From Octopus sinensis (taxonomy: Eukaryota), in assembly GCF_006345805.1 (NCBI RefSeq), contig NW_021824886.1:1-17405 (forward strand): a stretch of DNA of 17,405 bases, read 5' to 3'. A program made the position numbers and the translations under genes. The notes beneath the pieces are model-generated. The model was not told where the DNA came from. It was given only the letters and a program-made list of their open reading frames with translations, and did not search any database. This document shows positions 1 to 17,405 of this stretch, in pieces. Numbering within the stretch: position 1 is the first letter of the stretch; the number at the start of each line of letters is the position of its first letter.

Positions 1-97
1 CAAACATCTTGTTTTAATTTTTCGCCTACTAAACCTCATGATATTACTTATAATAAATCTTGATTTTTATCACTTCTGACATTGAGAATTTTTGGAA

Positions 98-325
98 GGC
101 GGCGAGCTGGCAGAAACGTTAGCACACGCCGAGCGAAATGCGTAGCCGTATTTCGTCTGGCCGTTACGTTTCTGAGTTCAAATTCCGCCGAGGTCGACTT
201 TACCTTTCATTCTTTCGGTCGATTAAATAAGTACCAGTTACGCACTAGGGTCGATATTCGACTTAATCTGTGTTTCTGTCCTTATTTGTCCTCTCTGTTT
301 TAGCCCCTGTGGGCATAAAGAAATA
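98..325 (+). mobile_element. tRNA-derived SINE, family A (full length)
   Basis: GGCGGCGAGCTGGCAGAA head, B box GAGTTCAAATTCC (174-186), central gactttacctttcattctttcggtcgattaaataagtaccag resembling a Deu/Nin-type SINE domain. Second copy at 8473-8649. Flanking direct repeat at 53-74 and 327-348. Confidence 0.85.
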
Positions 326-809
326 TATAAATCTTGATTTTTATGACTATACCAACTATGATGTCTGTCTTCTTTCTCTCCCTCAGCCCTCCCCTAACAG
401 ATACTGCCCTCTGTTCTTTCCTCCTTAGATATAAAGGGATCGATAAACTAGTCTATAAATTAAAACTGACCCCATAAAGACAAAAATCCGTGGCATGCAG
501 ATTCTTCTTTATAATTTTAGTACCTCTATGCTAATTAGAAACATGTTCTTTGTCTATCTCCTTGACTTCTTGGATATTTTAGGTATAATTATACTAATGT
601 GTCCATCTGTTCTTATTCATACGAAAACCGCCTGGAAACTAAGAATATCACTTGGATGTATTGAAACATTTAATCTAGTATTTAGCAGATGTGCCTTGTG
701 CAATTTGTTAATTATTTAACCTGTTTGAGCATCCTATTAATGAATAGCGCCCACACAAAGGAAACGGTTTTAAGGGAAGCGGGGACGTCCAAATAGACTT
801 TTCAGATAT

Positions 810-852
810 CTGTTTGTGTTTGTGATTGTGTGTGTGTGTTTATGTGTGTGTG

Positions 853-893
<41 letters not shown>

Positions 894-900
894 TGCGTGC
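810..900. repeat. (TG)n microsatellite
   Basis: Direct reading. Confidence 0.95.
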
Positions 901-970
901 GTATATTATAACTTGCTTTTGATTCCAATAAACATTGTATATTGACTGATTTATTTATTTTTATTTTCAG

Positions 971-1024
971 AGTGAAGATACGAAAGTGCATAAAAGGAAG
1001 TTCCATTTCTTGCTCGTTGAACCG
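971..1024 (+). CDS. Internal 54-bp coding exon of an AMPA-type ionotropic glutamate receptor (GluA/GRIA-like), amino-terminal domain; SEDTKVHKRKFHFLLVEP
   Basis: Acceptor tttattttcAG (969-970), donor GTaaat (1025), phase 0-0, no stops. Aligns to the 18-aa vertebrate GluA2 exon VITIGKHVKGYHYIIANL (H..xFHFLL vs H..xYHYII) and joins the next exon in frame. Confidence 0.85.
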
Positions 1025-1045
1025 GTAAATATAGATTTATATTAG

Positions 1046-1046
<1 letters not shown>

Positions 1047-1089
<43 letters not shown>

Positions 1090-1630
1090 TACACACACAT
1101 ACACACACACATGCATGCATACATACTTACATACATACATACATATATACATACATATATACATGCATACATACATGCATACATGCATACATATACATAT
1201 ATACATACATACATGCATGCATACATACATCATACATACATACATACATACACACATACACACATAACATACATACATACATGCATCATACATACATACA
1301 TACATACATACTACATGCATACATACTACATACACACATACATACATACCTACATACATACATCATCCTACATACATACATACATGCATACATACATACA
1401 TACACACACACATACATACATACATGCATGCATACATACATACATACATACATACACACATACACACATACACACATACATACATACATACATGCATGCA
1501 TACATACATACATACATGCATACATACATACATACACACATACATACATACATACATGCATGCATACATGCATGTATATATGCATAAAGACATGTATGTA
1601 CTTATATACATACAAATTTACACACATACA
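1047..1630. repeat. (CA)n/(CATA)n compound microsatellite
   Basis: Direct reading. Confidence 0.95.
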
Positions 1631-1912
1631 CGTATATATTGTATGTTTGCATGCGTATGTATGCGTTCAAGTATAATATGCCACATGCGTGCGCATGCCC
1701 ATATACACTTACGCGCGCGCGCGCACGCACATATAAACATATGACCCCTATTAACTCGCTGACTGAGCCCATAAACCATTCGTTGCTTAAGGGAATTTCA
1801 TATATTGTCTTTCGCGTGTTTCAGCCTTGTGGAGACAATTTCGTCTCCGAACTATAATTCAAATACATTTGCCGTCTTAAGCATAATGAACAGTGCATGA
1901 AAAAAAAATTAT

Positions 1913-1920
1913 ATTATACA

Positions 1921-1955
<35 letters not shown>

Positions 1956-2284
1956 AGTATAATAATAATAATAATAATAATAATACATAATAATAATAAT
2001 AAAATGATAATGATAATGAATATGATAATAATACTAAATAATAATAATAATAATAAGAATATAAATAATAATGATAATAATAATAATAATAATAATAAAT
2101 AATAATAATGATAATGATAATAGTAATAATAATAATAATAATAATAAATAATAATATAATATATGATATGATAATGATAATAATACTAAATAATAATAAT
2201 TAATAATAATATAATAATATGAGATGATAATAAATAATAATAAAATAATAATAATAATAATATAATGATAATGATAATAGTAAC

Positions 2285-2322
<38 letters not shown>

Positions 2323-2484
2323 TAATGATAATTATAATGATAATATACTAAATAATATAATAATAATAATAATGAGATAATATAATAATAATAATATAAT
2401 AATGATAATAATAGTAATAATAATATGATAAGAATAATAATAATAATAATATAATAAAATAATAATAATAATAATAATAAAATA

Positions 2485-2517
<33 letters not shown>

Positions 2518-2580
2518 GAATAATAATAATGATGATGATGATGATGATGATGGATGATGATGATATGATGATGATAATTA
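1913..2580. repeat. (AAT)n/(GAT)n array with about 160-bp higher-order periodicity
   Basis: tgataatagt recurs near 1949, 2115 and 2272; actaaata recurs near 2033, 2185 and 2347. Confidence 0.9.
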
Positions 2581-2581
2581 A

Positions 2582-3508
2582 TTCTGGTTTATTGGCCACA
2601 AGGGCTAACAAAAATCAAAGAAACATGTAAGGACAAATACAGGACGAAAAGTAAAAAGGATTTTGTCCGAAAAGAAAGGTCCGTGTAAACATTTAAATAA
2701 CAACGAAATTATATATATAACAAGTAAAACTCCCAATAGTGGGAGGCGCTTCGAAAGGTTACTCGTGGAAAAACCCATAAAAACCACGGGAGCTTGGTCA
2801 AAAAGGGGTAGAGAGCCCCTTTGTCCGTTTATATTACCCTTTTTTTTTTACAGGTGTAACCTCAGAATTGGTCCGTTCATACTGGCCTATTTACCGACAT
2901 TCACCCACCTTTCAATAAATTTGCTACGAGACAGCACTTCCCTCTCTACGCTCATCTTCTCTTCAAGTGGAACTTGAAAAAGTTGATTAGGCCTTGGCCA
3001 AAGAGGGAAAAGTCTGACTGTAGCTCTTTCCAACGGGTCCACCATACCACCTCTTTCGCTATAGCCACTAGACAAGGGAAAATTGCCTTGCCCTCCCGGT
3101 TAAAGGAGGTCGACGGGGCAATCTTCACTATGGATTCAGCTGATAGCCGGATCCGTCCTATACGCGACAGTAGCTCTTCGACATAAACCCACAGGTCAGC
3201 AATACTCGGGCACTGGACGAGTGCGTGCAGAACGGTTTCGTCGTCCTGGGCGCACCTCGGGCAGGACCGGCTGACGGCACTTCCGTATCGGTAGAGTTTA
3301 TTTCGAACAGGCAGCGCCCCTCGGTAGCACTGCCAGGCGAGGGACCTTCGGAAATTATCCATGGGCCCCGGCCCGAAAGTTCTTCCGAGCAGACTGTTTA
3401 ACTCATTATCGTCGACGCCTAGAGTTTCCCCGAGAACGTCGTCGCACTTTTTCACTAACCCTCTGTAGAACGCTAGAGTGGAACTACGACCGATCGCATT
3501 GCCCGCTT
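2582..3508 (-). mobile_element. 3' fragment of a Tx1/L1-clade LINE (ORF2 C-terminal zinc knuckle, 3' UTR, simple-repeat tail)
   Basis: LAWQCYRGALPVRNKL...CPRCAQDDETVLHALVQC (Cx2C..H..C, zf-RVT-like). A frameshift near 2955 continues as KMSVEREVLSRSKFIERWVNV. The T-rich 3' UTR ends in AATAAA followed by (ATC)/(ATT)n. Confidence 0.85.
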
Positions 3509-3658
3509 GTGCGTGGCATGATGATCTATCAAGATTAACAGCGGTGGGGCCCAATTTGAATTTTCTTCAGGTTGAGTAGCCCATCCCGCTCAAAAGGTCC
3601 TTAAATAAGGGTTGTTTGAGGATGTTGAACGAAACACCCATGTTTCCAAAGGGGAATT
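3509..3658 (-). repeat. Unclassified interspersed repeat fragment (inverted copy of about 6335-6500)
   Basis: Reverse complement shares cctttggaaacatgggt, aaacaacccttatt, ccttttgagcg, tgggccc and atcttgata with the 6335-6500 region. Confidence 0.8.
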
Positions 3659-3705
3659 ATCTACTCCCCTCCCACCAAATTTCACGCCGTGTGCCTATAG
3701 CAGAA

Positions 3706-3847
3706 ATTATTATTATTATTATTATTATTAGTAGTAGTAGTAGTAGTAGTATAGTAGTAGTAGTAGTAGTATTTGTTGTAGTAGTAGTAGTAGTAGTAGT
3801 AGTAGTTAGTGGTGGTGGTGATGGTGGTAGTGGTGTGTTGTGGTGGG

Positions 3848-3892
<45 letters not shown>
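3706..3892. repeat. (ATT)n/(AGT)n/(GGT)n compound microsatellite
   Basis: Direct reading. Confidence 0.95.
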
Positions 3893-4158
3893 AAGTGTTT
3901 CGCTTACGGCCGCTTACAGCATAACAAAGCGGACTGTTATGTGGTCGAATGATTAATGTTGTTGCGTTTGTCTGTGTCTTGTGTTGGATTCATGACAGGC
4001 GGATATTTCTTAATTTGATCGAAAATGTTGAGTTTCTGGAAACGCTGAAGAAGACAAATGAGTTTCGTGGAAATTTACAAATGCGAACAACGAATATATT
4101 ATTTAAACATTGTGGCACTTATGTTCGGTTAAATTCGGATGGATACAATGCAGGCCGC

Positions 4159-4520
<362 letters not shown>

Positions 4521-4952
4521 ACTCTATTTACTTTACTTGTTTCAGTCATTTGACTGCGGCCATGCTGGAGCACCGCCTTTAAGTCAGTCCAGCAAATCGA
4601 CCCCAGGACTTATTCTTTGTAAGCTAGTACTTATTCTATCGGTCACTTTTGCCGACCGCTAAGTTACTGGGACGTAAACACACCAGTATCGGTTGTCAGC
4701 GATTTTGAGGGGACAAACACAGACACACAACATATACACACACATACACACACACAACATATATATATATATATATATATTATATATACATATATACGAC
4801 GGGCTTCTTTCAGTTTCCGTCTACTAAATCCACTCACAAGGCTTTGGTCGGCCCGAGGCTATAGTAGAAGACATTGCCCAAAGTGCCACGCAGTGGGACT
4901 GAACCCGGAACCATGTGGCTGGTAAGCAAGCTACTTACCACACAGCCACTCC
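4521..4952 (-). mobile_element. tRNA-derived CORE-type SINE, family B, copy 1
   Basis: Reverse complement of 9768-10189 along its whole length; internal (CA)/(TA) tract at about 4716-4795. Confidence 0.9.
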
Positions 4953-5013
4953 ACACTAACACAAAGAAATAATCAAAAGGTTTCTGTGTGTATTTGTGTG
5001 TGTGTTGTGTGTG

Positions 5014-5055
<42 letters not shown>

Positions 5056-5186
5056 CACACATGTCAATGCGTGTATACTGTGAGCGCATATATATAGGCA
5101 ATTATGCGGATAAACAAATTAAACATATCAAATAAAACAGCTTGGGTATGAAATACAAAATATGTATATATTTATACATGTATGAT

Positions 5187-5287
5187 TTATGTATGTATGT
5201 ATGTATGTATGTATGTATGATTGTATGTAAGTATGATTGTATGTATGTATGAGTGTATGTATGATTGTATGTATGTATGATTGTATG

Positions 5288-5319
<32 letters not shown>

Positions 5320-5455
5320 ATTGTATGTAAGTATGATTGTATGTATGTATGTATGTGTGTATGTATGATTGTATGTATGTATGTATGTATGTATGATTGT
5401 ATGTATATATGTATGTATGTATGTATGATTGTATGTATGTATGTATGTATGTATA
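5187..5455. repeat. (TATG)n microsatellite punctuated by GATT
   Basis: Direct reading. Confidence 0.95.
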
Positions 5456-5831
5456 TGTGCAGATTTGTATGTTTTATTTTATGTATCCTCATGCATATAG
5501 TTGCATATCTAGACACGCTCATATATATTTAAATGATAAACTTCTGGAAAGTTTTACAGATTTTTACAGTTCCAGTGATGGATTGGATCTGTAGTCTTCG
5601 AATTAGCTTTCTCCTTTCTGGTTTTGAGAAGCCTAATTTCTCTTAGGCAGTGTGTTACATATCCCAGGGCCTCGATAATTACAGGTGTAAACCTGAACCT
5701 GTTATCTGGATCGAGTAACAGCTGATTTCTCATTAGTTCAGCATAGGTATTCTCTTTTTCACTGATCTTCAGCTTCATGATAACATCCGCTGGGCAGCTA
5801 ATTTCCACAACCGTACAGTTTCTCTTCTCTG
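5455..5831 (-). mobile_element. 3' fragment of a restriction-like-endonuclease LINE (R4/Dong-like)
   Basis: CTVVEISCPAD...KISEKENTYAEL...PVIIEALG, then after a frameshift EKLGFSKPERRKLIRRLQIQSITGTVKICKTFQKFII* (stop 5529-5531). A short 3' UTR runs into (CATA)n. Confidence 0.8.
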
Positions 5832-6159
5832 GCGAGGTAGTTTAATAGTTAGCACACTGGAAAAATTCTTTACTGCATTTCTTTTGGCTTTACATTTTGA
5901 GGTCATATGCCGCTAACATATGAGCACATTGCCCAACTGGGGCGCTAAGCGTCTGACGAACTTCTACGTGCCAGATGCAGTTCTTAACTCTGCAGTTCTG
6001 TCGCAGAGTTAAGCTGCTGATAAAATATCTTACAACCAGGGCCCATGCCTGCGTAACGTCCAGAATAATCTTCAGATAGTGCATCTCAGCGTGTTTCCGC
6101 ATCAACAGCCACGGCATACCGGACCCCTCTTTCAGAGGATGCTGATAAGATACGGAGTA

Positions 6160-6795
6160 ATAATATATATAAAAGATGGGCTACAGAAAATATTCTGTTC
6201 GTTACTGAAGATTTGCTTGTCAGTTGCTTGAACTTTACCACTCAATGACTGATAATATGTGCATCTCTGGTCACAAGCAGGAATAGTGGAGGAGTATCAT
6301 AGACATGTGTTGAGAGGAATTCTTTGGGGTTTGAATAATTAACCTTTGGAAACATGGGTATTTCGTTCATTATCCCTAAACAACCCTTATTCAGGGTCCT
6401 TTTGAGCGAGATGGGCACTCGACTCGCAAAAACTTCTAACTGGGCCCAACTTGCAAAGTCATGCACTGTCTATCTTGATATGAGATCACCGTGTTGCACA
6501 CATTGTGGTGATGCGTGTGTATGCAGCATCCTCATCAAACTGGTGGTTATGATGTAAATCTATATGTGTGCATGTGAATCTACTTGTACAAGTGTATATA
6601 TATATATATGCATGTATAGGTGTAAATGTTTATGCGTATCTATGTATAGGTGTGTGAATGTGTGTGTATGCTAGTGTGTGTTTTCCGCGCATTTTTCAAT
6701 CAATTTGTATAATACGATGCCTTTCGCACACAGGGGCTTCGTTTATTTGTACCTTAATGTCATTCGTTTTGATTGCATACACTGCTGTCTCACTC

Positions 6796-6849
<54 letters not shown>

Positions 6850-6850
6850 T
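6160..6850 (+). repeat. Unclassified interspersed repeat, probably a retroposon 3' end with an (AAT)n tail, interrupted by the 6553-6735 insertion
   Basis: The homologous copy at 3509-3658 shows it is repetitive; it ends ctcactc(aat)n. Outer boundaries are approximate. Confidence 0.5.
6553..6735 (+). repeat. Direct duplicate of 7654-7833 (intron 3' end including the splice acceptor)
   Basis: Both copies run tgtaaatctatatgtgt...ctacttgta...gtgaatgtgtgtgtatgctagt...caatcaatttgtataatac.atgcctttc.cacacaggg. Confidence 0.9.
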
Positions 6851-6948
6851 AACAACAACAACAACAACAACAACACAACGACGACGACGACGATGATGAT
6901 GATGATGGTATTTTAAAAAGGATTGACGTAATTCTTCACAAAGATAAT

Positions 6949-7134
6949 CAGTCAAGACGAAGCGCGCGATTCGTTTGTAAGATATTTTATTCGTTGAACG
7001 ATATTACTTGACAAAGACAGTAAGTCTGTCTTTTGTCAAGTTCTGAACTTGACAAAGACACAGACTTACTGTTGAAATATCGTTCAACCAATAAAATATC
7101 TATTACAATCGAATCACGCTCTTCGTCTTGACTG
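6949..7134. repeat. 186-bp near-perfect palindrome (foldback, MITE-like)
   Basis: cagtcaagacgaag...ttgtcaagttc-T(7044)-gaacttgacaa...cttcgtcttgactg; the arms pair over almost their full length. Confidence 0.9.
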
Positions 7135-7135
7135 C

Positions 7136-7196
<61 letters not shown>

Positions 7197-7248
7197 GAAA
7201 CGGAAGAAAATTTGAAGAAAGAAGGAAAAATAAATAATAATAATAATA

Positions 7249-7280
<32 letters not shown>

Positions 7281-7369
7281 TAATAATAATAATAATAAAA
7301 AGAAACGGAAGAAAATTTGAAGAAAGAAGGGAAAAAAATAATAATAATAATTATAATAATAATAATAAT

Positions 7370-7425
<56 letters not shown>
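7136..7425. repeat. (AAT)n array containing a duplicated purine-rich unit of about 37 bp
   Basis: aaagaaacggaagaaaatttgaagaaagaagg occurs at about 7194 and 7299. Confidence 0.9.
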
Positions 7426-7426
<1 letters not shown>

Positions 7427-7831
7427 CCACCTTCAAAACTGACCAAGACTGCACACCTTGACGCTGGGTACTGTGAACTAGGAGCTAGGTAAAGATAGCG
7501 CACGCAAAAGCCCAGGACTGAATGAAGCAGGTTTCAAACACATTTCAGCCATGGAAGAGACGATCCAGAAAGCGTCTTAACGAAAGAAACGCTTCTGTGA
7601 GAATCAGAGAGAAATAAACCCGCGCTCACGCATTTATATAGTCTGTACTCTCTTGTAAATCTATATGTGTACGAGTCTACTTGTATAAGTGTATGTGTAT
7701 GCATGTATAGATATAAATGTATATGTGTACCTATGTATAGGTATGCGTTTGTGAATGTGTGTGTATGCTAGTATGTGTTTTTCCGCACATTTTCCAATCA
7801 ATTTGTATAATACTATGCCTTTCTCACACAG

Positions 7832-7993
7832 GGTATCCAAGAGTTAAATTTAAAAGAAATGCCAAACTACGGCTGTAATGTGAGCGGCTTTCAATTAGTC
7901 GACTTCAATAATATGACAGTCAAAGTTTTTCTATCATCTTGGTTAACAATAGACCCAACAGAATGGCCAGGGGCCGGTGTTAACACCATAACG
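7832..7993 (+). CDS. Internal 162-bp coding exon of the AMPA-type glutamate receptor; GIQELNLKEMPNYGCNVSGFQLVDFNNMTVKVFLSSWLTIDPTEWPGAGVNTIT
   Basis: Acceptor tttctcacacAG (7830-7831), donor GTgagt (7994), phase 0-0. NVSGFQLVD...F...W.T....EWPGA...I matches GluA2 NVSGFQIVD...[22 protein letters not shown]. Confidence 0.95.
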
Positions 7994-8199
7994 GTGAGTT
8001 TCAATTTCTTTCTTTGAATACTTATAATTTCTTTACGTATTGTGTTTGTTTTCGATATCGTACATATTTATTTTTTAATACGCCTCAACAGATTTCAATG
8101 TGAATATATTAATCGGTGTTGTATTTCGCCTTCGGGTAATATCTTCCTCTCTCAGACGATGTATGTCGACAACACACTCGATTCATGAACGAAGGGAAA

Positions 8200-8246
8200 C
8201 TTTGAGACACTGGTGTTTCGACGTAGTTGTATCACTTCAGTCAAAG
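8200..8246 (-). ncRNA. Type-I hammerhead ribozyme motif (A9>U variant)
   Basis: Minus strand: CUUUGA-CUGAAGU-GAU(acaacuac)GUC-GAAA-CAC(ca)GUG-UC-UCAAAG; 6-bp stem I, GUC cleavage triplet. Confidence 0.65.
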
Positions 8247-8301
8247 CACTCTCTCCGATTAATGGACCTAAACAGGAGCTGTGGCTCTTGTAATATCTTC
8301 T

Positions 8302-8472
8302 TTAAAAGCCATATCCAGAATGTAGGACATATGGCATGTTCTGCCACAATTCTCTGTTTTTTGTTTCCTGTAACAGCTCCACATCCTGATGATGTTTAAT
8401 GCTTCTTTCTTCGAACCAATTCGTCGAGCTTGACATCCACATCATCCTTCGCTTTCCTTTGCTTCTTTTCCC
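8302..8472 (-). mobile_element. 3' terminal fragment of an RTE-clade LINE ORF
   Basis: Open frame GKRSKGKRRMMWMSSSTNWF...ELLQETKNRELWQNMPYVLHSGYGF*, resembling the RTE C-terminal GKR.RGR.R..W...DR..W pattern. Confidence 0.7.
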
Positions 8473-8649
8473 TCATCTGCAGCTTCGTTCTGAGTTCAAA
8501 TTCCACCAAGGTCGACTTTGCCTTTCATCCTATCGGGTTCGATTAAATAAGTACCAGTTACGCACTGGGGTCGATATAATCGACTTTATACCTTTGTCTT
8601 TCCTTGTTTGTTCCCTCTATGTTTAGCCCCCTGTGGGCAATAAAGAAAT
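8473..8649 (+). mobile_element. tRNA-derived SINE, family A (5'-truncated)
   Basis: Colinear with about 153-325 (gagttcaaattcc...gtcgacttt...gattaaataagtaccagttacgcact...tttagcccc...taaagaaat). Confidence 0.85.
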
Positions 8650-8684
8650 GTATATTTATTCCCTGATTGATATATATGTATATG

Positions 8685-8737
<53 letters not shown>

Positions 8738-8738
<1 letters not shown>

Positions 8739-8973
8739 TTAGGGAATAAATCCAAATTTACAGGGAAAAAATCAGATTTAGGATTAAATCCAATTTTATA
8801 GTAAAATATTATAAAATATTATTAGAGACAAAACCACTATTTTGCAAAACAAACAAGGAAAGACTTAATCAATACATAAAATTTTAATAAATAGTCAAAA
8901 AAACCGCCACTACAATTATTTCTTGTCTTGATCGACAATCTTCAGGTGGACTTCCAATAAGTCAGTTTCAAAT
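8738..8973 (-). mobile_element. Short non-coding hammerhead-bearing element between (TA)n tracts (Penelope-like pLTR remnant or retrozyme-like)
   Basis: Sharp boundaries with (TA)n on both sides; contains the 8907-8949 hammerhead; no ORF. Confidence 0.6.
8907..8949 (-). ncRNA. Minimal type-I hammerhead ribozyme motif
   Basis: Minus strand: CCAC-CUGAAGA-UUGUC(gaucaa)GACAA-GAAA-UAAUUG-UA-GUGG; complete core, 5-bp stem II, near-palindromic stem III. Confidence 0.8.
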
Positions 8974-9005
<32 letters not shown>

Positions 9006-9198
9006 CATACATATATTCTCGTTCAAATCTATTGAAATGTATTAAGAATGCCCATGTACATTATCATTCCGATTCTCGCTGTTCTTCTACACGCTAATTA
9101 TTATCAATTATTATTTTCTTTTATTCAAAGCTTGATTCATGCGTAGAATATAAGTTGGTCACAACCACAGCTTTAGTATCTGTGCCTTCATGTCCAGT

Positions 9199-9623
9199 TA
9201 CTCTTTAATCTTTTACTTGTTTCATGCCATTTGACTGTGGCCATGCTGGAGCACCGCCTTTAGTCGAGCAAATCGACCCCAGGACTTATTCTTTGTAAGC
9301 CTAGTACTTATTCTATCGGTCTCTTTTGCCGAACTACTAAGTTACAGGGACGTAAACACACCTGCATCGGTTGTCAAGCGATGTTGGGGGGACAAGCACA
9401 GGCACACAAACATACACACACACACATACATATACATACATACATACATACATACATACATACATACATACATACGACGGGCTTTTTTCAGTTTCCGTCT
9501 ACCAAATCTACTCACAAGGCTTTGGTCGGCCCGAGGCTATAATAAAAGACACTAGCCCAAAGTGCCACGCAGTGGGGCTGAAAACAAAACTGTGTGGTTG
9601 GTAAGCAAGCTACTCACCACACA
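9199..9623 (-). mobile_element. tRNA-derived CORE-type SINE, family B, copy 2
   Basis: Colinear with 4521-4952; internal (CATA)n tract; lacks the extreme 5' end of the head. Confidence 0.9.
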
Positions 9624-9767
9624 TATTTTTTTTTCCTTCACAAACGTTGCTAATTGTCTAAAATCAACAGATTTAGTTATTCGTTTACATTAATTAAAGC
9701 TGATCAGTTAACAGTAATTTCTGATCAAAGATTAAGCAATAAACTCTATCAACCTTAATTATGTATA

Positions 9768-10189
9768 GGCGCAGGCGTGGCTGTGTGGTAAGTAGCTTGT
9801 TTACCAACCACATGGTTCCGGGTTCAGTCCCACTGTGTGGCACCTTGGGCAAGTGTTTTCTACTATAGCCTCGTGCCGACCAAAGCCTTGTGAGTGGATT
9901 TCGTTGACGGAAACTGAAAGAAGCCCGTCGTATATATGTATATATATGTATGCGTGTGTGTGTTTGTGTGTGTCTGTGTTTGTCCCCGTAGCATTGCTTG
10001 ACAGCCGATGCTGGTGTGTTTATGTCCCCGTAACTTAGCGGTTCGGCAAAAGAGACCGATAGAATAAGTACTGGGCTTACAAAAGAATAAGTCCCGGGGT
10101 CGAGTTGCTCGATTAAAGGCGGTTCTCCAGCATGGCCGCAGTCAAATGACTGAAACAAATAAAAGAGTAAAAGAGTAAAAAGAGAGTAA
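9768..10189 (+). mobile_element. tRNA-derived CORE-type SINE, family B, copy 3 (full length)
   Basis: A box TGGCTGTGTGG (9778-9788), B box GGTTCAGTCCC (9821-9831), MIR/CORE-like accttgggcaagtg...agcctc, internal TA/TG tract, 3' hairpin cagtc-aaat-gactg and (AAAGAGT)n tail. Resembles the octopus OR-type SINEs. Confidence 0.9.
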
Positions 10190-10244
10190 GCAAATCGACT
10201 GAATCGATACGAGTATGGAATATCAGACTAACCATTAACCACTA

Positions 10245-10505
10245 GGCGCGTGGCCGAATGATGCGCGGTTTGAACTCACGGTCGGAAGTTCGTGGTTGCG
10301 ATTGTCGAACCGTGAGGCGCGTTGTGTTCTTGAGCAAGACACTCCATTTCTCGTTGCTCCAGTTCACTCAGCTGTAGAAATGAGTAACTCCTGTGAATAG
10401 CTGAGGAAGGAGACCTCGTTCAGAGGAATGTTGTGAGATCTCAGACACTTATAGGCCATGGAAAGCGTGTAACCGGTCCTATGAGTCCTCAGACTCGGAA
10501 CAGTT
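10245..10505 (+). mobile_element. tRNA-derived SINE, family C (degenerate)
   Basis: ggcgcgtggccgaatg head, degenerate B box, gtgttcttgagcaagacact...tgctccagttcactcagctgt central block typical of tRNA SINEs; runs into a (GAT)n tract. Single copy in the window. Confidence 0.6.
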
Positions 10506-10522
10506 ATGACCGGTGGGGTGGG

Positions 10523-10990
10523 GGATGATGACGACAACGACAATGACGCCAACAATGATGATGATGACGACAATGGTGACTACGGTGACGATGATGATGA
10601 TGATGAGGAGGAGGAGGAGGAGGACTATGAGACGACGACGACGACGATGGTGATGATGATTATGATGATGATGACGATGGTGATGATGATGATGATGACG
10701 ACAACGACAACAACGACGATGACGATGATGATGATTAGAAGGAGGAAGAGGAGGAGGAAAACGACGACGATGATGGTGATGATGATGGTGATGATGATGA
10801 GGATGAGGAAGAGGATGATGATGATGATGATGACAACGATGGTGACTACGATGACGATGAAGATGAGAAGCAGGAGGAGAAAGAGGAGGACGAGAAGGAG
10901 GAGGAGTAGGGAGAAGAGGAGGAGGACGACGGTGATGGTGGTGATGATGATTATGATGACGACGACGACCACCACCACCACCACCACGAT
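10523..10990. repeat. (GAT)/(GAC)/(GAG)n trinucleotide low-complexity tract
   Basis: Direct reading. Confidence 0.9.
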
Positions 10991-11376
10991 GGTCTTCAGG
11001 GTCACCGGTTCAAATCCGCCTTCGGTCATCCTTTCTGCGTTTGCAAAGAAAACGATTCTTTATTCCTTAAATATGCAATTATTCAAATTCTGCTCTCATA
11101 GAAAACGAGAGGTCGCCAACGAGCGTACAACTCTTATTCATTTACATAGAAATCCTTTCCTCACTTCTTAGGCAAAAACGACAAAAGCTCAGCTTTGTTA
11201 ATCTGGGAACTGATGGCATTTGGCAAGTTACCTAAAATATATTTTTTATCTTTATTTCCTCCAATAACTCGATTTTATATCAGCGAATGCCGTAACTTTA
11301 CTGCAAAATGTGTAAAAGCGAAAACAAATACTAACAATGAGATGAAAGAATAGTTGTTGGAAAAACACAGGAAATA

Positions 11377-11545
11377 TTACAAAAACCTCCGTTTGATGGA
11401 CATCAAATCCGCCATTTTTGTTGGCTTAGAAAGCCACCATTTTAACGTATTACAAAATCACTATTTCGATGGCGTACAAACCCTCCGTTTTAACCGATTA
11501 CAAAACCACCGTTTTGCAAGATTATAAAACAGTCATTCTTCATAC
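11377..11545 (+). repeat. Degenerate 24-bp minisatellite, about 7 units
   Basis: Units start at 11377, 11401, 11426, 11450, 11474, 11498 and 11522; consensus approximately TTACAAAACCACCGTTTTNANNGA. Confidence 0.75.
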
Positions 11546-11625
11546 ATTTTACTAAACCAACCACCACTTCTTATTTTTATGTATTTATTTATTTATTTAT
11601 TTATTCATTTATTTGCTTATTGCAG

Positions 11626-11817
11626 TACGAAGCAGCCCTGGCAGTTGACGCAGTCAGTCTGTTTACACGTGCTATGAAAAACCTTTCAAATAATGGCTTG
11701 TTTGAGTCGTTGTTCATCCGGTCTAAAAGTGGAACAAACAGCAGTAAGAGCTGTGCTACAGTCCAAAAACTGAATGTTTGGAATAAAGGCAAAATAGTTT
11801 TAAAAGCAATGAAAGAG
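11626..11817 (+). CDS. Internal 192-bp coding exon of the AMPA-type glutamate receptor; YEAALAVDAVSLFTRAMKNL...KSCATVQKLNVWNKGKIVLKAMKE
   Basis: Acceptor ttattgcAG (11624-11625), donor GTaatt (11818), phase 0-0. Matches GluA2 [20 protein letters not shown]...[22 protein letters not shown], including the conserved Cys and W.xG. Confidence 0.93.
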
Positions 11818-11939
11818 GTAATTATAGCATTTGTTGTCATCTTTTTTTTCTTTCTTACTTGATGGTTTCTGCATCAATTTAAATCTTCCTTTTAATACAC
11901 AACACACACGAGTGTGTTGTGTGTGTGTGTGTACATTCG

Positions 11940-12124
11940 GCATGCATAACTGCTAAATCTACGGGTTCTTTCCATTTTCTGTTTATTTTCTCTTATTCCT
12001 TTCTGTTGAAGAGCGTAGGCTCGAAACGTAAAAAGTCTTTTTCATTTTCCTGAGCGTCAAATTAATACACCTGCTTGTTGTTCATACCCCTGTCTTCCGC
12101 TTTTGTTTTTCTATAAATTTCAAC
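11940..12124 (+). mobile_element. Short element with a hammerhead-like motif ending in (TA)n (Penelope-like remnant)
   Basis: Hammerhead-like motif, T-rich 3' part, abuts (TA)n at 12125; 5' boundary approximate. Confidence 0.45.
11999..12035 (+). ncRNA. Degenerate hammerhead-like motif
   Basis: CUUU-CUGUUGA-A-GAGC(guag)GCUC-GAAA-CG-UA-AAAAG; non-canonical core. Confidence 0.45.
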
Positions 12125-12181
<57 letters not shown>

Positions 12182-12200
12182 AGGTACATATATATATATA

Positions 12201-12790
12201 GGGTGGCGAATACTCGTTATAAATACAACCACCAATGGCCTAGCGTGTATAAAAAGTCAAAAGACAACATATTCGTATTTCAAAATAGAAAATTACCCTT
12301 TAACAGGTAATTTTTATATGCTAGAAATAGCAGCCAACACGGCCAAAAACCACAATTTTATAGCAAATTTCGAAGTGCATGAAAAATAAAAACCTTTACC
12401 TTGTTATATAACGGTTATACCAATGGTTTCGAATCTCTTTAGCAAATAATATTGCTTGCCATCTTTTAATAGATAATTTAGCAAGACCGTATTATCTACC
12501 AGACGAATTCTCGTCAGTAACCGGCCAAAACAACTAACTTAACTGTTTCTTATCAAAAAATAACTTTTTCCTATGTATGGTGACATATATACGGGGATAG
12601 GAAAGCCTTCTTTTTTTCTGTCGATGGCTTATATGCCCTGTTATTAGACTATTTTCTTTAATCATTGCACCGTGATCGCCATAAATAAACTTTAAGCTTA
12701 TATAAAAAATTTTTAAAAACCATTATTATTATTTACAGGATTGTAAAATACGGCACCGTATAACAAAACCATTCGCACTGAAAGCATATA
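12201..12790 (-). mobile_element. About 590-bp non-coding hammerhead-bearing element between (TA)n tracts
   Basis: (TA)n on both sides; contains the 12412-12523 hammerhead. Confidence 0.55.
12412..12523 (-). ncRNA. Type-I hammerhead ribozyme motif with a large branched stem II insertion
   Basis: Minus strand: CGGUUA-CUGACGA-GAAU(72 nt)AUUC-GAAA-CC(auu)GG-UA-UAACCG. Confidence 0.75.
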
Positions 12791-12842
12791 ATACATACAT
12801 ACATATATATATATATTATATTATATATATATATATATATAT

Positions 12843-12900
<58 letters not shown>

Positions 12901-12903
<3 letters not shown>

Positions 12904-13297
12904 TAAAGTAAATAAATGGCACAACGAAGCACCGATATTTACTGGAAAATAGCGAACGTAATAAATACGATGCTAATGTATAGCTTCACTGCGTATGTAC
13001 TAGTAAAGATGCGTGTGTGCAACAAACATGAAAAAAATTGTCTTACCTCAAGGAAGAACATCTGAAAAATGAAAAACCTAGAAACGGATAATGCAGTACC
13101 GGTTTCAGACTCTCCAAAATACGTCTGCCAACGTATATTTGATTTGTCATCATCAGCTGCATAAACCTCAACAACATTTCAAATGTTGCCACATCTATGC
13201 CAGTACACTCGTCTGAACGCCAAAGCGTTAACAGAACGAGAACAGTGAAGAAGTTTCAATGAAAATAGTAATGCAATACGAGAGTATTGCTTTCCAG
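12901..13297 (-). mobile_element. About 400-bp non-coding hammerhead-bearing element between (TA)n tracts
   Basis: (TA)n on both sides; contains the 13091-13162 hammerhead. Confidence 0.55.
13091..13162 (-). ncRNA. Type-I hammerhead ribozyme motif with extended stem II
   Basis: Minus strand: AUGCAG-CUGAUGA-UGAC(35 nt with hairpin)GUCU-GAAA-CCGG-UA-CUGCAU; palindromic ACCGGU stem III; first stem II pair is a U-U mismatch. Confidence 0.8.
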
Positions 13298-13389
<92 letters not shown>

Positions 13390-13445
13390 CATACATATAT
13401 ATATATATAGATACATATATATATACATATATATTATATATATAT

Positions 13446-13493
<48 letters not shown>

Positions 13494-13586
13494 TACATAT
13501 ATATATATATTTACATATATATATATATATGTATAGAGAGAGAGAGAAGGAGAGAGAGGTAACAGACAGAGACGTAAAGTTGGATC

Positions 13587-13644
<58 letters not shown>

Positions 13645-13657
13645 CAGATAGATAGAT
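13298..13657. repeat. (TA)n, (GA)n and (GATA)n microsatellites
   Basis: Direct reading. Confidence 0.95.
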
Positions 13658-14330
13658 ATTCACACACACCTGCACACTTCCTTTCTTCCTCTTAATTAAA
13701 TAACTAACCCTAGCTTAAATAAACCATCGCTTAACCCTACGTACAGATCACGTGCTGGAGTTTATTAATTAGCCATACATTTCCACAATGCACACCAGAA
13801 CACGAGTCTATCTTCGAATTAGCAAACCCAGAACTAGTTTTTTCTTTTTCTTTTTTTTTCTTTTTGTAAGAAGAATTTTTCATTCCTTTTGAAGCCGGCA
13901 AAGCTTTCATCTATTCCTGCTCCCTAACGAGATAGTTTCATTATATTTTGTTCTTTTAATGAACTCCCCACCACGACCACCACCGCCGCTGTTCCCGAAT
14001 TTATACTTTTCGCTTATCTTTTTGGGGTTATTCTCACAGCTAGAAATTTTTTTTTTAAATCATTTGGTGATGGACCTACCTGACACTCTAAACCCACGCA
14101 CCCCTCGCATTTTTGTAGACTAACCCTACAAGTCGAACGAATATTAAGACTTGGTCTCAACCCCTCCGCTCCCCTAATCCCTCGCTCGATCCGCTCCAAA
14201 TGCAGTTTTACCTCATATCATTACAACCACCGCCGCCGACGCCACTACCACCATCGCTATCGCTACAACCACTTCCTCTTCTTTCTTTCGTCCCCCACCC
14301 TTCTCTTCCTTCTCCTCATTCCCGTTCTCA

Positions 14331-14373
<43 letters not shown>

Positions 14374-14872
14374 TATCTCTTTCTCTCCTCCTTTTTCCGC
14401 TAAAGAATTTATTGCCTCTTCTACGATGCTCCCTTCAAAGTTACATTCCGATTTTCCCCTTTATTTTATTATATTTTATATTTTATTAACTATTTTCTTT
14501 CTCTCCTTTAATTTCTCCTTGTTTTTTATCAGCCACGCCCTCCCTCCATCTCTCTCTCGCCCTCTATCTCCCTCCCCTCTCTTCCCCCTCTCTCTTTCTC
14601 AGTGTTTATCCTTCTATCCTTCTGTTAACTAAGCAATTCCCTAAATAAAACGAAGGCCATTTCCATTTGTCTTTTTACAAGTCAAGAATATCTCAAACAT
14701 ATTTGAATTAATCTAAAAGTTGGTTTATATCTCAACACTGCTTTGCGCACCAACCATTTATTTTGTTTCAGCCTGGCCGCCATAGCGTTCTGTCAGTGGA
14801 TATTTTCTACAGATTTTCTATAAGAGAGCCAAGGTTTCCATTCATTTCAGGGTTGTCCCCCCTTGTTATTTA

Positions 14873-14910
14873 ATACTGATGAGAGCATAAAGAGCTCGAA
14901 AACCATATAT
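14873..14910 (+). ncRNA. Degenerate hammerhead-like motif
   Basis: AUA-CUGAUGA-GAGC(auaaaga)GCUC-GAAA-ACCA-UA-UAU; core and stem II intact, stems I and III weak. Confidence 0.5.
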
Positions 14911-14980
14911 CAATCCATATGTGGCGCTCCGAAATGACTTTGATGTTGTACACCGTTTTTTCTTTTTTTTTGTTTTTTGC

Positions 14981-15398
14981 TTTTATCTTTTACTTCATTC
15001 AGTCCATTAGACTGCGCCCATGCTAGGGCACTACCTTCGAGAATTTTAGTCGAACGAATCGACCCCAGTACTTCTTTAAGGTGTGATACTTATTTTATCA
15101 GGCTCCTTTTGCCGAACTGTTAAGTTAAAGTTACAGACACGTAAACAAACCAACACCAGTTGTCAAACAGTGGAAGGATACACACACACACACACACACA
15201 TATATATATGGGTATGTATGCATTATGTAAGTATGTATATATACAATGAGTGCCTTTCAGTTTCCGTTCTAATCCACTTTTGAGGAGTGGGTCGACCCGA
15301 GACTATAGTGAAGACACTCAATGTGCAACGCCGTGGGACAGAACCCCAAACCATCTGGTTGGGAAGCAAACTTCTTACCACACAGCCACGGCCGCGCC
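14981..15398 (-). mobile_element. tRNA-derived CORE-type SINE, family B, copy 4 (diverged)
   Basis: Same blocks as copies 1-2 (gactgcg..catgct, tcgacccca, gccgaact, ttcagtttccgt, cttaccacacagccac) with more substitutions. Confidence 0.8.
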
Positions 15399-16290
15399 TA
15401 TACCGAGACTATATCTCCAACCACCGTGAAAATGGCTAGCTACAATGAAAGTGTTCTCTACACAATCTAATATCAGAGAATCATATCAAGGTTCACATGA
15501 AGGGCAGCTCGTCTACAACATCAGGTCACTTCTAATTGTCAACCCCCAGTACAGGACACACAGTGGTTCTGAGTTCAGTAAGCAAATCTCTTTAAATGTT
15601 GGGACCATAATAAAACACAATGGATTATTTCTATTTGTGGTAGGTCCAACTCAACACGACCCGAGCGAAGTTCTTTATGCTTAAAAAAAAAAATTCGGAT
15701 CAGAGCTCTAATTTTGGGATTATGTGGCAGGTGTGCTGCTTCTCTCCGTATTTTCTCTTACCTAGTTTTCTCTTACCTAGTTCTGCTCCTTAGTTGTTAC
15801 ATGAGAGAAATGTTCCAAATAAGACTGCAGCCCGAACTTGTGGGTAACGCTGCGGGAAGTACCTAAGTTACACCTTATCAATTCAAGGTCATTGTTCGAT
15901 TTCCGGCTGGCTGAAGGCTCATATAGTTCGACTATAAATTTATTTCATTCATTTCTGTGATGTGCATTCCCCAAATAATTTTTGTTTTGTGTTTTGGTCT
16001 CATCTCAACAACATACCACCACCACTACCACCACCATTGCCGCCGCTATATATGTTTTTTGAGAACATGGGGAATGGAAAATTGTAATATTCATGCGTTT
16101 TCCGATTTCCCAAGACTGATAACGACACAAGTGACCTTTTCTTGCTTTCAGCGAGAATTGAAACCCGTTCCAACTACTCGGACAAGGTTGTTCTATAGCT
16201 TTTGATTTCACTCTGTGAATGGAGTTCTACTAAAGCACATCACAAGCTTTATATTAACTCTGCTTTCAACATAATAATCCTTTAGTTTCC

Positions 16291-16350
16291 TATATACGCA
16301 TGTATGTATGTGTGTGTGTATGTATGTATGTGTGTGTGTATGTATGTATG

Positions 16351-16384
<34 letters not shown>

Positions 16385-17074
16385 TGTGTGTATGTATGTG
16401 TGTATGTATGTATATATGTATGTGCGTGTATGTATGTATATATGTATGTGCGTATGTATGTATATATGTATGTGTGTGTATGTATATATGTATGTGTGTG
16501 TGTATGTATATATGTATGTGCGTGTATGTATGTATATATGTTTGTATGTGTGTATGTATGTATGTATGTGTGTACTTATGTATATATATGTATGTGTGTA
16601 TGTATGTATGTATGTATATATGTATGTGTGTATGCATGTATTTATATGGGTAAGTGTATATATATGTATCTATGTGTTATTGTATGTATGTATGTTTGTG
16701 TGTGTTTGTGCACGCATATATATGTATGTCTGTATGTATGTGCGTATATGTGTATAAATATATATATATATATATATGCATATGTATATGTGTATGTATA
16801 TATATAATATCAGCCTTTTAGATAGGATCAAAGTGTTCTTTATTGATATATATATATATATATATACACATATGTATATATGTGTGTGTTTGTGTGTATG
16901 TGTGTCTATGCGCACGTGTGTGTATGTGTGCGTACGTGTGTGTGTATATATATATATATATATACATACATACATATGTATGATGTGTGTGTGTGTGTGT
17001 GTGTGTGAATATGCACGATTCTTTTTCTCTGTCTTTGCGTGTGCGCGTGTGAAGAGAGAGAGAGAGAGAGAGAC

Positions 17075-17115
<41 letters not shown>
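16291..17115. repeat. (TATG)n/(TG)n/(TA)n/(GA)n/(CA)n compound microsatellite region
   Basis: Direct reading. Confidence 0.95.
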
Positions 17116-17117
<2 letters not shown>

Positions 17118-17405
17118 AGAGAGCGAGTTAATATTAATGACAAGGCTCTCCTGACGGCGGATACGGAGCTAATCCCTGATACCAGCGCTATTCCTACCAA
17201 CTACTGCAACGACATTCTGCTACACAATGCTTTTTCTAGCAACGGAACAATCAATTTGGCGAACAGCAGTCAAAAGAAGATTAACATTTTCTGCCATAAT
17301 TTGCAGACGACAACTGTATCTAAAGGTTTTGCATATGATGAGGACGAGAAGGAGGAGGAGGAGGAGGAGGAATTAGTGATTTCGTGGTTATGGAGGGGGA
17401 CGGTG

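Follow-up and report, generated by a model that had tools for sequence, protein, structure and literature searches.

The window analysed here is the entire 17.4-kb contig NW_021824886.1 (positions 1 to 17,405) of the Octopus sinensis assembly GCF_006345805.1, from a genome of 2.72 Gb; it holds two exons of a glutamate receptor gene and six hammerhead ribozyme motifs, M1 to M6. We consider it highly probable that all six are minimal type I hammerheads that arrived as independent insertions from six families, with M2 and M3 being truncated ends of Penelope-like elements (PLEs) and M1, M4, M5 and M6 being non-LTR retrozymes (LTR, long terminal repeat) that were likely copied in trans by PLE enzymes. 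The family structure, the M2 and M3 parents, tandem read-through, two fixed 3' ends, inverted arms, junctions with (TA)n and stem covariation were all seen directly. More tentatively, we suggest that the genome records hammerhead action in vivo: double hammerheads may have cut ORF-less retrozyme RNAs, which Penelope enzymes would then have inserted by priming internally at two UA-rich sites that pair with nicked (TA)n. The features discussed, including a seventh motif, M7, that a first, sequence-only reading overlooked, are collected in Table 1.

Table 1. Features of the window, with coordinates on the contig (ORF, open reading frame; pLTR, pseudo-LTR).
Feature	Position	Strand	Hammerhead	Remarks
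M7, two PLE 3' ends in inverted orientation within (AAT)n	6949..7134	+	7044-7086	U3-A8 core
Exon of AMPA-type glutamate receptor gene (amino-terminal domain)	7831..7992	+		phmmer to GluA2, E=5.9e-7; contigs joining it to the next exon
M1, old ORF-less unit of ~320 bp	8037..8295 (approximate)	-	8247-8199	A9U in the window copy
M2, spliced terminal repeat (pLTR) and tail of a young Hydra-clade PLE	8735..8974	-	8949-8907	exon junction 8959/8958; alternative 3' end in other copies 8806; (TA)n on both sides
Following exon of the same receptor gene	11625..11817	+		spliced contigs; Pfam ANF_receptor, E=0.019 (below cut-off)
M3, 5'-truncated PLE 3' end (Cys-rich linker, C-terminal GIY-YIG)	11940..12126	+	11999-12034	A6U; followed by (TA)n
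M4, ORF-less unit of ~460-490 bp	12200..12541	-	12523-12412	two 3' ends, at about 12200 and about 12270; 3'-terminal (TA)n
M5, 394 bp from an ORF-less, circularly permuted unit of 429 bp	12905..13298	-	13162-13091	cut predicted at 13097/13096; flanked by (TA)n on either side
M6, old ORF-less unit of ~330 bp	14670..14950 (approximate)	+	14870-14913

The sequence-only reading had placed six hammerheads at these positions, and comparison with shuffled sequence bears it out. A first scan of the window with a short stem II gave four motifs against a shuffle mean of 0.24, and none of 100 shuffles had as many. A strict scan that allowed a long stem II gave three against a mean of 0.01 (0 of 100 shuffles reached three), and when one core mismatch was tolerated six were found against 0.46, again with 0 of 100 shuffles having as many. 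These last six are M1 to M5 and a match at 11543, which we treated as a probable chance occurrence; M6 escapes the relaxed scan because its helix III no longer pairs. The CUGANGA core that had been ascribed to all six is present, together with GAAA and UH, in M2, M4, M5, M6 and the M1 family, whereas the window copy of M1 carries A9U, a minor variant seen in 3 of 10 copies, and M3 carries A6U; the description therefore holds for four of the six window motifs. When the window was scanned with Rfam, the 150 of 171 matches listed contained no hammerhead, only microsatellite-driven microRNA-like matches. Folded as monomers, six of the seven motifs (M1 to M7) did no better than shuffles (z from -0.15 to -1.8); M4 did (z -3.1), but its core is sequestered in that fold.

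As had been proposed, the modules are unrelated: no module matches another by BLAST, and each belongs to a separate multi-copy family. First-look searches, which give lower bounds, returned at least 43 candidates for M1, 668 for M2, 1675 for M3, 3118 for M4, 1228 for M5 (at least 1825 in a second search), 27 for M6 and 1120 for M7. Hammerheads are also frequent in the genome at large. Sixty 10-kb stretches taken at round coordinates (600 kb) contained 19 strict hammerheads, compared with 1 and 1 in two shuffles, which extrapolates to approximately 82,000 genome-wide (45,000-122,000) and would be a large unannotated fraction. Nearly all of those in the sample came from different families. Under a lenient rule, helix III was self-complementary in all 14 of the 14 canonical background matches with a stem I of at least 4 bp, compared with 0 in 5 shuffles. 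Two further groups were noted on the way: a 497-bp tandem repeat with a canonical hammerhead and a 10-nt palindrome as helix III (L316:7998-8607), which resembles a retrozyme and would be a further family, and a U4C core variant (CCGANGA) carried both by a short, common family and by one family of autonomous PLEs (L262, L299, L312; L240, L257).

The retrozyme pattern, a short ORF-less unit repeated head-to-tail with a type I hammerhead, is found in M1, M4, M5 and M6, mostly as partial tandems. Among 30 dispersed M5 loci, 25 read through into a further unit at a constant 429-bp period, and 26 of the 29 longest arms, in a sample picked for near-full length, exceed one unit (24 of 27 once a duplicated locus is removed). 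For M4, read-through occurs in 11 of 30 loci, two of which are 26-nt matches only, with a period of 461-495. Insertion ends are fixed as well. M5 arms end at one site in 44 of 63 cases and at a second site about 66 nt further in 13 (57 of 63 in total), inverted pairs often use one of each, and 73 of 84 M4 arms stop at two sites. Stem covariation across homologues, which the first reading had anticipated, was found in both: a stem II pair is kept in 21 of 21 M4 copies (15 A-U, 6 G-C) and in 35 of 36 M5 copies (18 U-A, 17 C-G). The stem II region of M4 is some 80 nt long. A 590-bp module described at this place turned out to be composite, since the M4 family stops at 12541 and 12542-12785, between M4 and a TA run, is a different element. 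A relative of the latter lies in L253:3740-3992 with a tRNA-like stretch, recognised by eye, upstream of it; ARAGORN reported no tRNA in the window or in L253.

A PLE insertion signature, in which (TA)n is the target, arms are inverted and two fixed 3' ends lie approximately 65-75 nt from each other, is common to M2, M4 and M5, and the PLE traits of partial tandems, an inverted truncated arm and a one-sided tail are seen in M2, M4, M5 and M7. Non-LTR retrozymes are known in molluscs (Cervera & De la Pena 2020, PMC7229834). Set beside that paper and a later one (Li, Clavereau & Pollet 2026, 10.64898/2026.07.22.740005), our ORF-less units resemble them in being of low GC content and 320-490 bp long, in carrying one type I hammerhead and in co-occurring with PLEs. 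They differ in forming dispersed insertions of one or two units, not long arrays, and in showing PLE-type inverted arms, two reverse transcriptase (RT) start sites and (TA)n targets. Targeting of (TA)n, which had been suggested for the modules generally, applies to M2 to M5; M1 and M6 are old and have no fixed distance to TA.

For the PLE end M2, the best 40 candidates are 99-100% identical, the 3' end at 8735 beside (TA)n is common to all 30 best loci, and 18 of these 30 have an inverted second arm, mostly ending at 8806. We compared the second exon in 56 distinct copies: it is spliced as in the window in 47, preceded by an AG acceptor in 7 and at an inversion junction in 2; the parent intron measures 1767-1820 nt in three of three loci. 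The parent, which is young, was traced through one long copy. At L442 it shows, in order, a donor, a 1.8-kb intron, an acceptor, the M2 hammerhead, the tail, an AT-rich stretch and a frameshifted ORF, in a tandem of about 6.3 kb. By eye, IKWK, DKT and RT motifs can be recognised in the ORF, together with a CxCX5C linker and a terminus that resembles an endonuclease; the piece of it submitted to Pfam went unrecognised. Of the features that define the Hydra clade, DKT, the CxCX5C linker, the (TA)n target and a hammerhead are present, with IKWK where RWK is expected, and the protein resembles the published Hydra alignment by eye. From its sequence, then, we read M2 as a 5'-truncated remnant of a young, ORF-bearing Hydra-clade PLE. 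Helix III also varies in a compensated manner in this family: among 51 copies (duplicates included), 41 have CAAUUG, 5 CGAUUG and 4 CGAUCG. We also noticed that some M2 copies cut off near the cut site (L371, L244, L304) bear short, slipped A/T-rich 5' repeats, as if RT had stuttered on reaching the end of its template, and that the 1.8-kb parent intron (L414-L444) is made of internal repeats resembling its own upstream region.

M3 has a comparable origin. A GIY-YIG ORF ends 170-760 nt upstream of it in four loci (L076, L262, L331/L409, L408), one of which (L409) also shows RT motifs and a Cys-rich linker; on these grounds M3 reads as the truncated end of an ORF-bearing PLE, tentatively of the Neptune clade, whose linker ahead of GIY-YIG has the form CX2-5CxxC. 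The family is very abundant, with 9 sites in 600 kb of random DNA corresponding to some 40,000 copies, and in 48 of 51 copies its core has U at position 6; position 7 is free. No inverted hammerhead was found in 30 M3 loci. M7, which targets (AAT)n, served as a control: its two 3' ends lie about 40 nt apart, PLE ORF sequence occurs in 18 of 30 loci, and the parent ORF, with RT and GIY-YIG, is upstream in L385. The ORF-bearing copies of the three parents (L442 for M2, L262/L409/L408 for M3, L385 for M7) are frameshifted, and their motifs were read by eye. The expectation that longer copies would be attached to a Penelope RT and GIY-YIG ORF was therefore borne out for M2 and M3, and the proposal that all the modules were non-autonomous retroelements survives for M1, M4, M5 and M6, M2 and M3 being remnants of ORF-bearing elements.

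Since M2, M3 and M7 are exactly truncated PLE ends, all six motifs could be terminal repeats of autonomous PLEs that became truncated or were duplicated locally, with the tandems of M4 and M5 arising by template jumping or local duplication and not from independent retrozyme RNAs. The M2 parent surfaced only through one long copy, and retrozymes have been proposed in the literature to derive from pLTRs, a PLE origin that is already published. We nevertheless regard this explanation as quite unlikely. The tail of M2 leads into an ORF, whereas the far 3' end of M5 leads back into the same unit at its constant period. Pieces of PLE protein matched 2 of 60 M4 loci and 3 of 60 M5 loci (5 in 120), as well as 0 of 30 M1 and 0 of 27 M6 loci; in no case does the match adjoin the module contiguously, and the matches in M4 and M5 loci, being non-contiguous or wrongly oriented, were rejected as parents. 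Longer ORF-linked copies were thus absent from the sampled loci of M1, M4, M5 and M6.

M1 and M6 are the two old families. Candidates are 71-85% identical for M1 and 68-81% for M6, and a following unit is reached by read-through, at about 320-330 bp, in 6 of 29 M1 loci and 9 of 24 M6 loci. The 5' side of M1 abuts the 3' end of a long interspersed nuclear element (LINE) at 8295-8420 on the minus strand (at least 235 candidates), which we take to be RTE-like; this repeat dominated our first M1 search and was rejected as a part of M1. In the window copy of M6, helix III and one pair of stem I are broken, and the helix III self-duplex is calculated at +3.4 kcal/mol. The palindromic helix III that had been said to suit dimer cleavage is self-complementary in the other motifs, and would allow such cleavage, but is broken in this copy.

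How would such units be inserted? We propose that a PLE GIY-YIG endonuclease nicks both strands of a (TA)n run, and that RT would then start within the RNA at two sites approximately 65-75 nt apart, aided by 2-10 nt of UA-rich pairing to the nicked target. Where the read-through is known, the RNA carries UA-rich letters at the junction, which are pronounced at both sites of M2, at the near one of M5 and at the far one of M4, and amount to 2 nt at the far site of M5; because of them, we think that target pairing likely helps priming. Multimeric RNA would be copied for up to two units, and the joining of two cDNAs would give an inverted insertion with a one-sided tail. Self-complementary helices III likely let tandem hammerheads fold as a double hammerhead and cut, and some templates would thus begin at the cut site. 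Intact RT and GIY-YIG frames of 775-883 amino acids are present in the genome, in families that carry their own hammerheads upstream of TA junctions, and therefore enzymes are likely available. The intact Neptune-like families, found through Pfam GIY-YIG, are parents of none of the modules, as nearby matches are separate insertions in shared TA runs; Naiads, which lack canonical hammerheads and are remnants in cephalopods, were set aside. One very young PLE family (L242, L246; G000:C1:207472800-207482700 and C19:35622700-35632600) has a 781-aa RT and GIY-YIG frame and an overlapping upstream frame of 479 aa that Pfam assigns to no family convincingly; close to the 3' end of the element lies a hammerhead-like motif of the U3-A8 type.

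Insertion 5' ends hint that cleavage takes place in vivo and that partly cleaved M4 and M5 multimers may serve as templates. In M4, 8 of 18 arms begin within 20 nt after the predicted cut, compared with 18 of 155 (p=0.0014), and at the second crossing of the cut in M5 the figures are 4 of 8 and 17 of 174 (p=0.007). If this is correct, the cut site and both RT start sites could be read from the insertion ends of tens of thousands of copies in many families, and animal retrozymes would be mechanistically tied to PLEs. It would bear on what the hammerheads of PLEs do and on which enzyme mobilises retrozymes in animals. Within one genome, young families of high copy number here provide fixed insertion ends and copies both with and without the intron, alongside intact candidate enzymes.

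Hammerheads might instead be retained as folded signals for binding or packaging by the PLE protein, with cleavage being incidental. A6U is fixed in the M3 family of some 40,000 copies, and changes at hammerhead A6 are reported to reduce activity; minimal hammerheads are described as cleaving poorly in vitro, and hammerhead mutants left in vitro insertion unimpaired. On the other hand, covariation between C3-G8 and U3-A8, a free position 7 and a palindromic helix III are what dimer catalysis needs, and two of the three samples have 5' ends concentrated behind the predicted cut. We therefore hold a role as binding signals alone to be unlikely.

Several points weigh against our interpretation, both of the families and of their mobilisation. 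Copies linked to an ORF are rare even for M2 and M3 (1 of 30 each), and for that reason the positive evidence lies in the read-through and not in the absence of an ORF; an ORF-bearing parent of M4 or M5 may lie outside the sample. No DNA similarity was found between M1, M4, M5 or M6 and 62 PLE-bearing loci, a small sample. Each covarying pair, in M4, M5 and M2, may reflect a single ancestral event. M1 and M6 show neither TA targets nor two 3' ends. The support for cleavage consists of insertion-end statistics, and neither RNA ends nor circles were seen in the sequence contigs. The bins for 5' ends were chosen post hoc, in both M4 and M5 a TA-like microhomology is present 6-7 nt beyond the cut, and M5 arms selected by their 3' part (first crossing) showed no pile-up, with 2 of 20 arms in the bin and 2 more at 0/+1. 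In vitro, the Poseidon PLE of Anolis, the single PLE so studied, started RT without target homology and its hammerhead was dispensable (PMC11167929), and among frog retrozyme dimers eight of nine are reported not to have cleaved.

The elements are known in kind: minimal hammerheads in PLE pLTRs, mollusc retrozymes and an octopus PLE hammerhead have all been described, and what is added here are new families and a mechanistic footprint. Minimal hammerheads in PLE pLTRs were published by Cervera & De la Pena (2014, PMC4209133). Ours are like theirs in being type I with a short palindromic helix III, an extra nucleotide after A9 and a U3-A8 variant; in both, a genome holds many families, mostly as single truncated copies, with an intron ending just before the ribozyme. 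The octopus motifs differ in the fixation of A6U in a very abundant family, in stem II regions of up to about 80 nt, and in a 1.8-kb intron that some genomic copies retain and others have lost by splicing. An octopus Hydra-clade PLE with a hammerhead, Hydra-1_Obim, is included in the supplement of Craig et al. (2021, PMC8557442). The M2 parent shares with Hydra-clade PLEs the RWK-like, DKT and CxCX5C motifs, the hammerhead and (TA)n insertion; unlike Hydra-1_Obim, from which we set it apart by eye, it has a different hammerhead and a diverged protein, and whereas that entry is given as 'no pLTR', the M2 parent has a pLTR with an intron and tandem copies. In vitro work accounts for the signature of two fixed ends, a one-sided tail and inverted arms: RT starts internally at two sites, and both strands of the target are used (Frangieh et al. 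2024, PMC11167929). As in that Anolis element, two internal RT starts define a one-sided tail here, both target strands are used and targets are AT-rich. In contrast to Poseidon, the tail is about 65-75 nt rather than 30-40, UA-rich target microhomology is present at the start sites, and the data hint at 5' ends placed after the cut of the ribozyme. The suggestion that these families were uncharacterised in cephalopods is thus overtaken, for the octopus Hydra-clade hammerhead, by that 2021 supplement; for octopus retrozymes and an A6U family, we found no description in the literature within reach, most subscription papers and Repbase lying outside it. Octopus repeat annotations do count PLEs, and the main texts of two cephalopod repeat papers do not contain the words ribozyme or hammerhead.

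The two receptor exons are spliced together in contigs from three of four runs, and M1 and M2 lie within the intron so defined (7993-11624). M3 to M6, beyond the GT donor at 11818, are presumed to be intronic, so that the intronic location first proposed is backed by spliced contigs for two of the six. A search of the second exon (11625..11817) against PDB returned no informative match. Contigs of presumed-RNA runs cover the M2 to M5 families, and are uninformative on strand, ends and circles. The window has three strict hammerheads where 0.55 are expected, an approximately five-fold excess (Poisson P=0.018), and 31 TA runs in 17.4 kb, compared with 611 in the 600-kb background. This modest excess is what could be adduced for the idea that the cluster is kept to regulate receptor pre-mRNA through self-cleavage, and we find that idea very improbable. 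Four of the six motifs (M1, M2, M4, M5) are antisense to the receptor, and the sense ones carry A6U (M3) or a broken helix III (M6). Moreover, each is a monomer from an ordinary family, some of these families being very young, and contigs show the intron 7993-11624 spliced out. For these reasons, cleavage of the pre-mRNA by the window motifs appears unlikely; we predict that the copies here are inert passengers, and for the receptor itself the finding is likely irrelevant. Because each motif belongs to a separate dispersed family, the apparent clustering in the receptor gene is the rich end of a genome-wide scatter and not a functional cluster. Elsewhere in the window, very abundant repeats at 110-330, 4530-4960, 8486-8650, 9200-9620, 9770-10160 and 14970-15400, which we presume to be similar to short interspersed nuclear elements, have heavy contig coverage.

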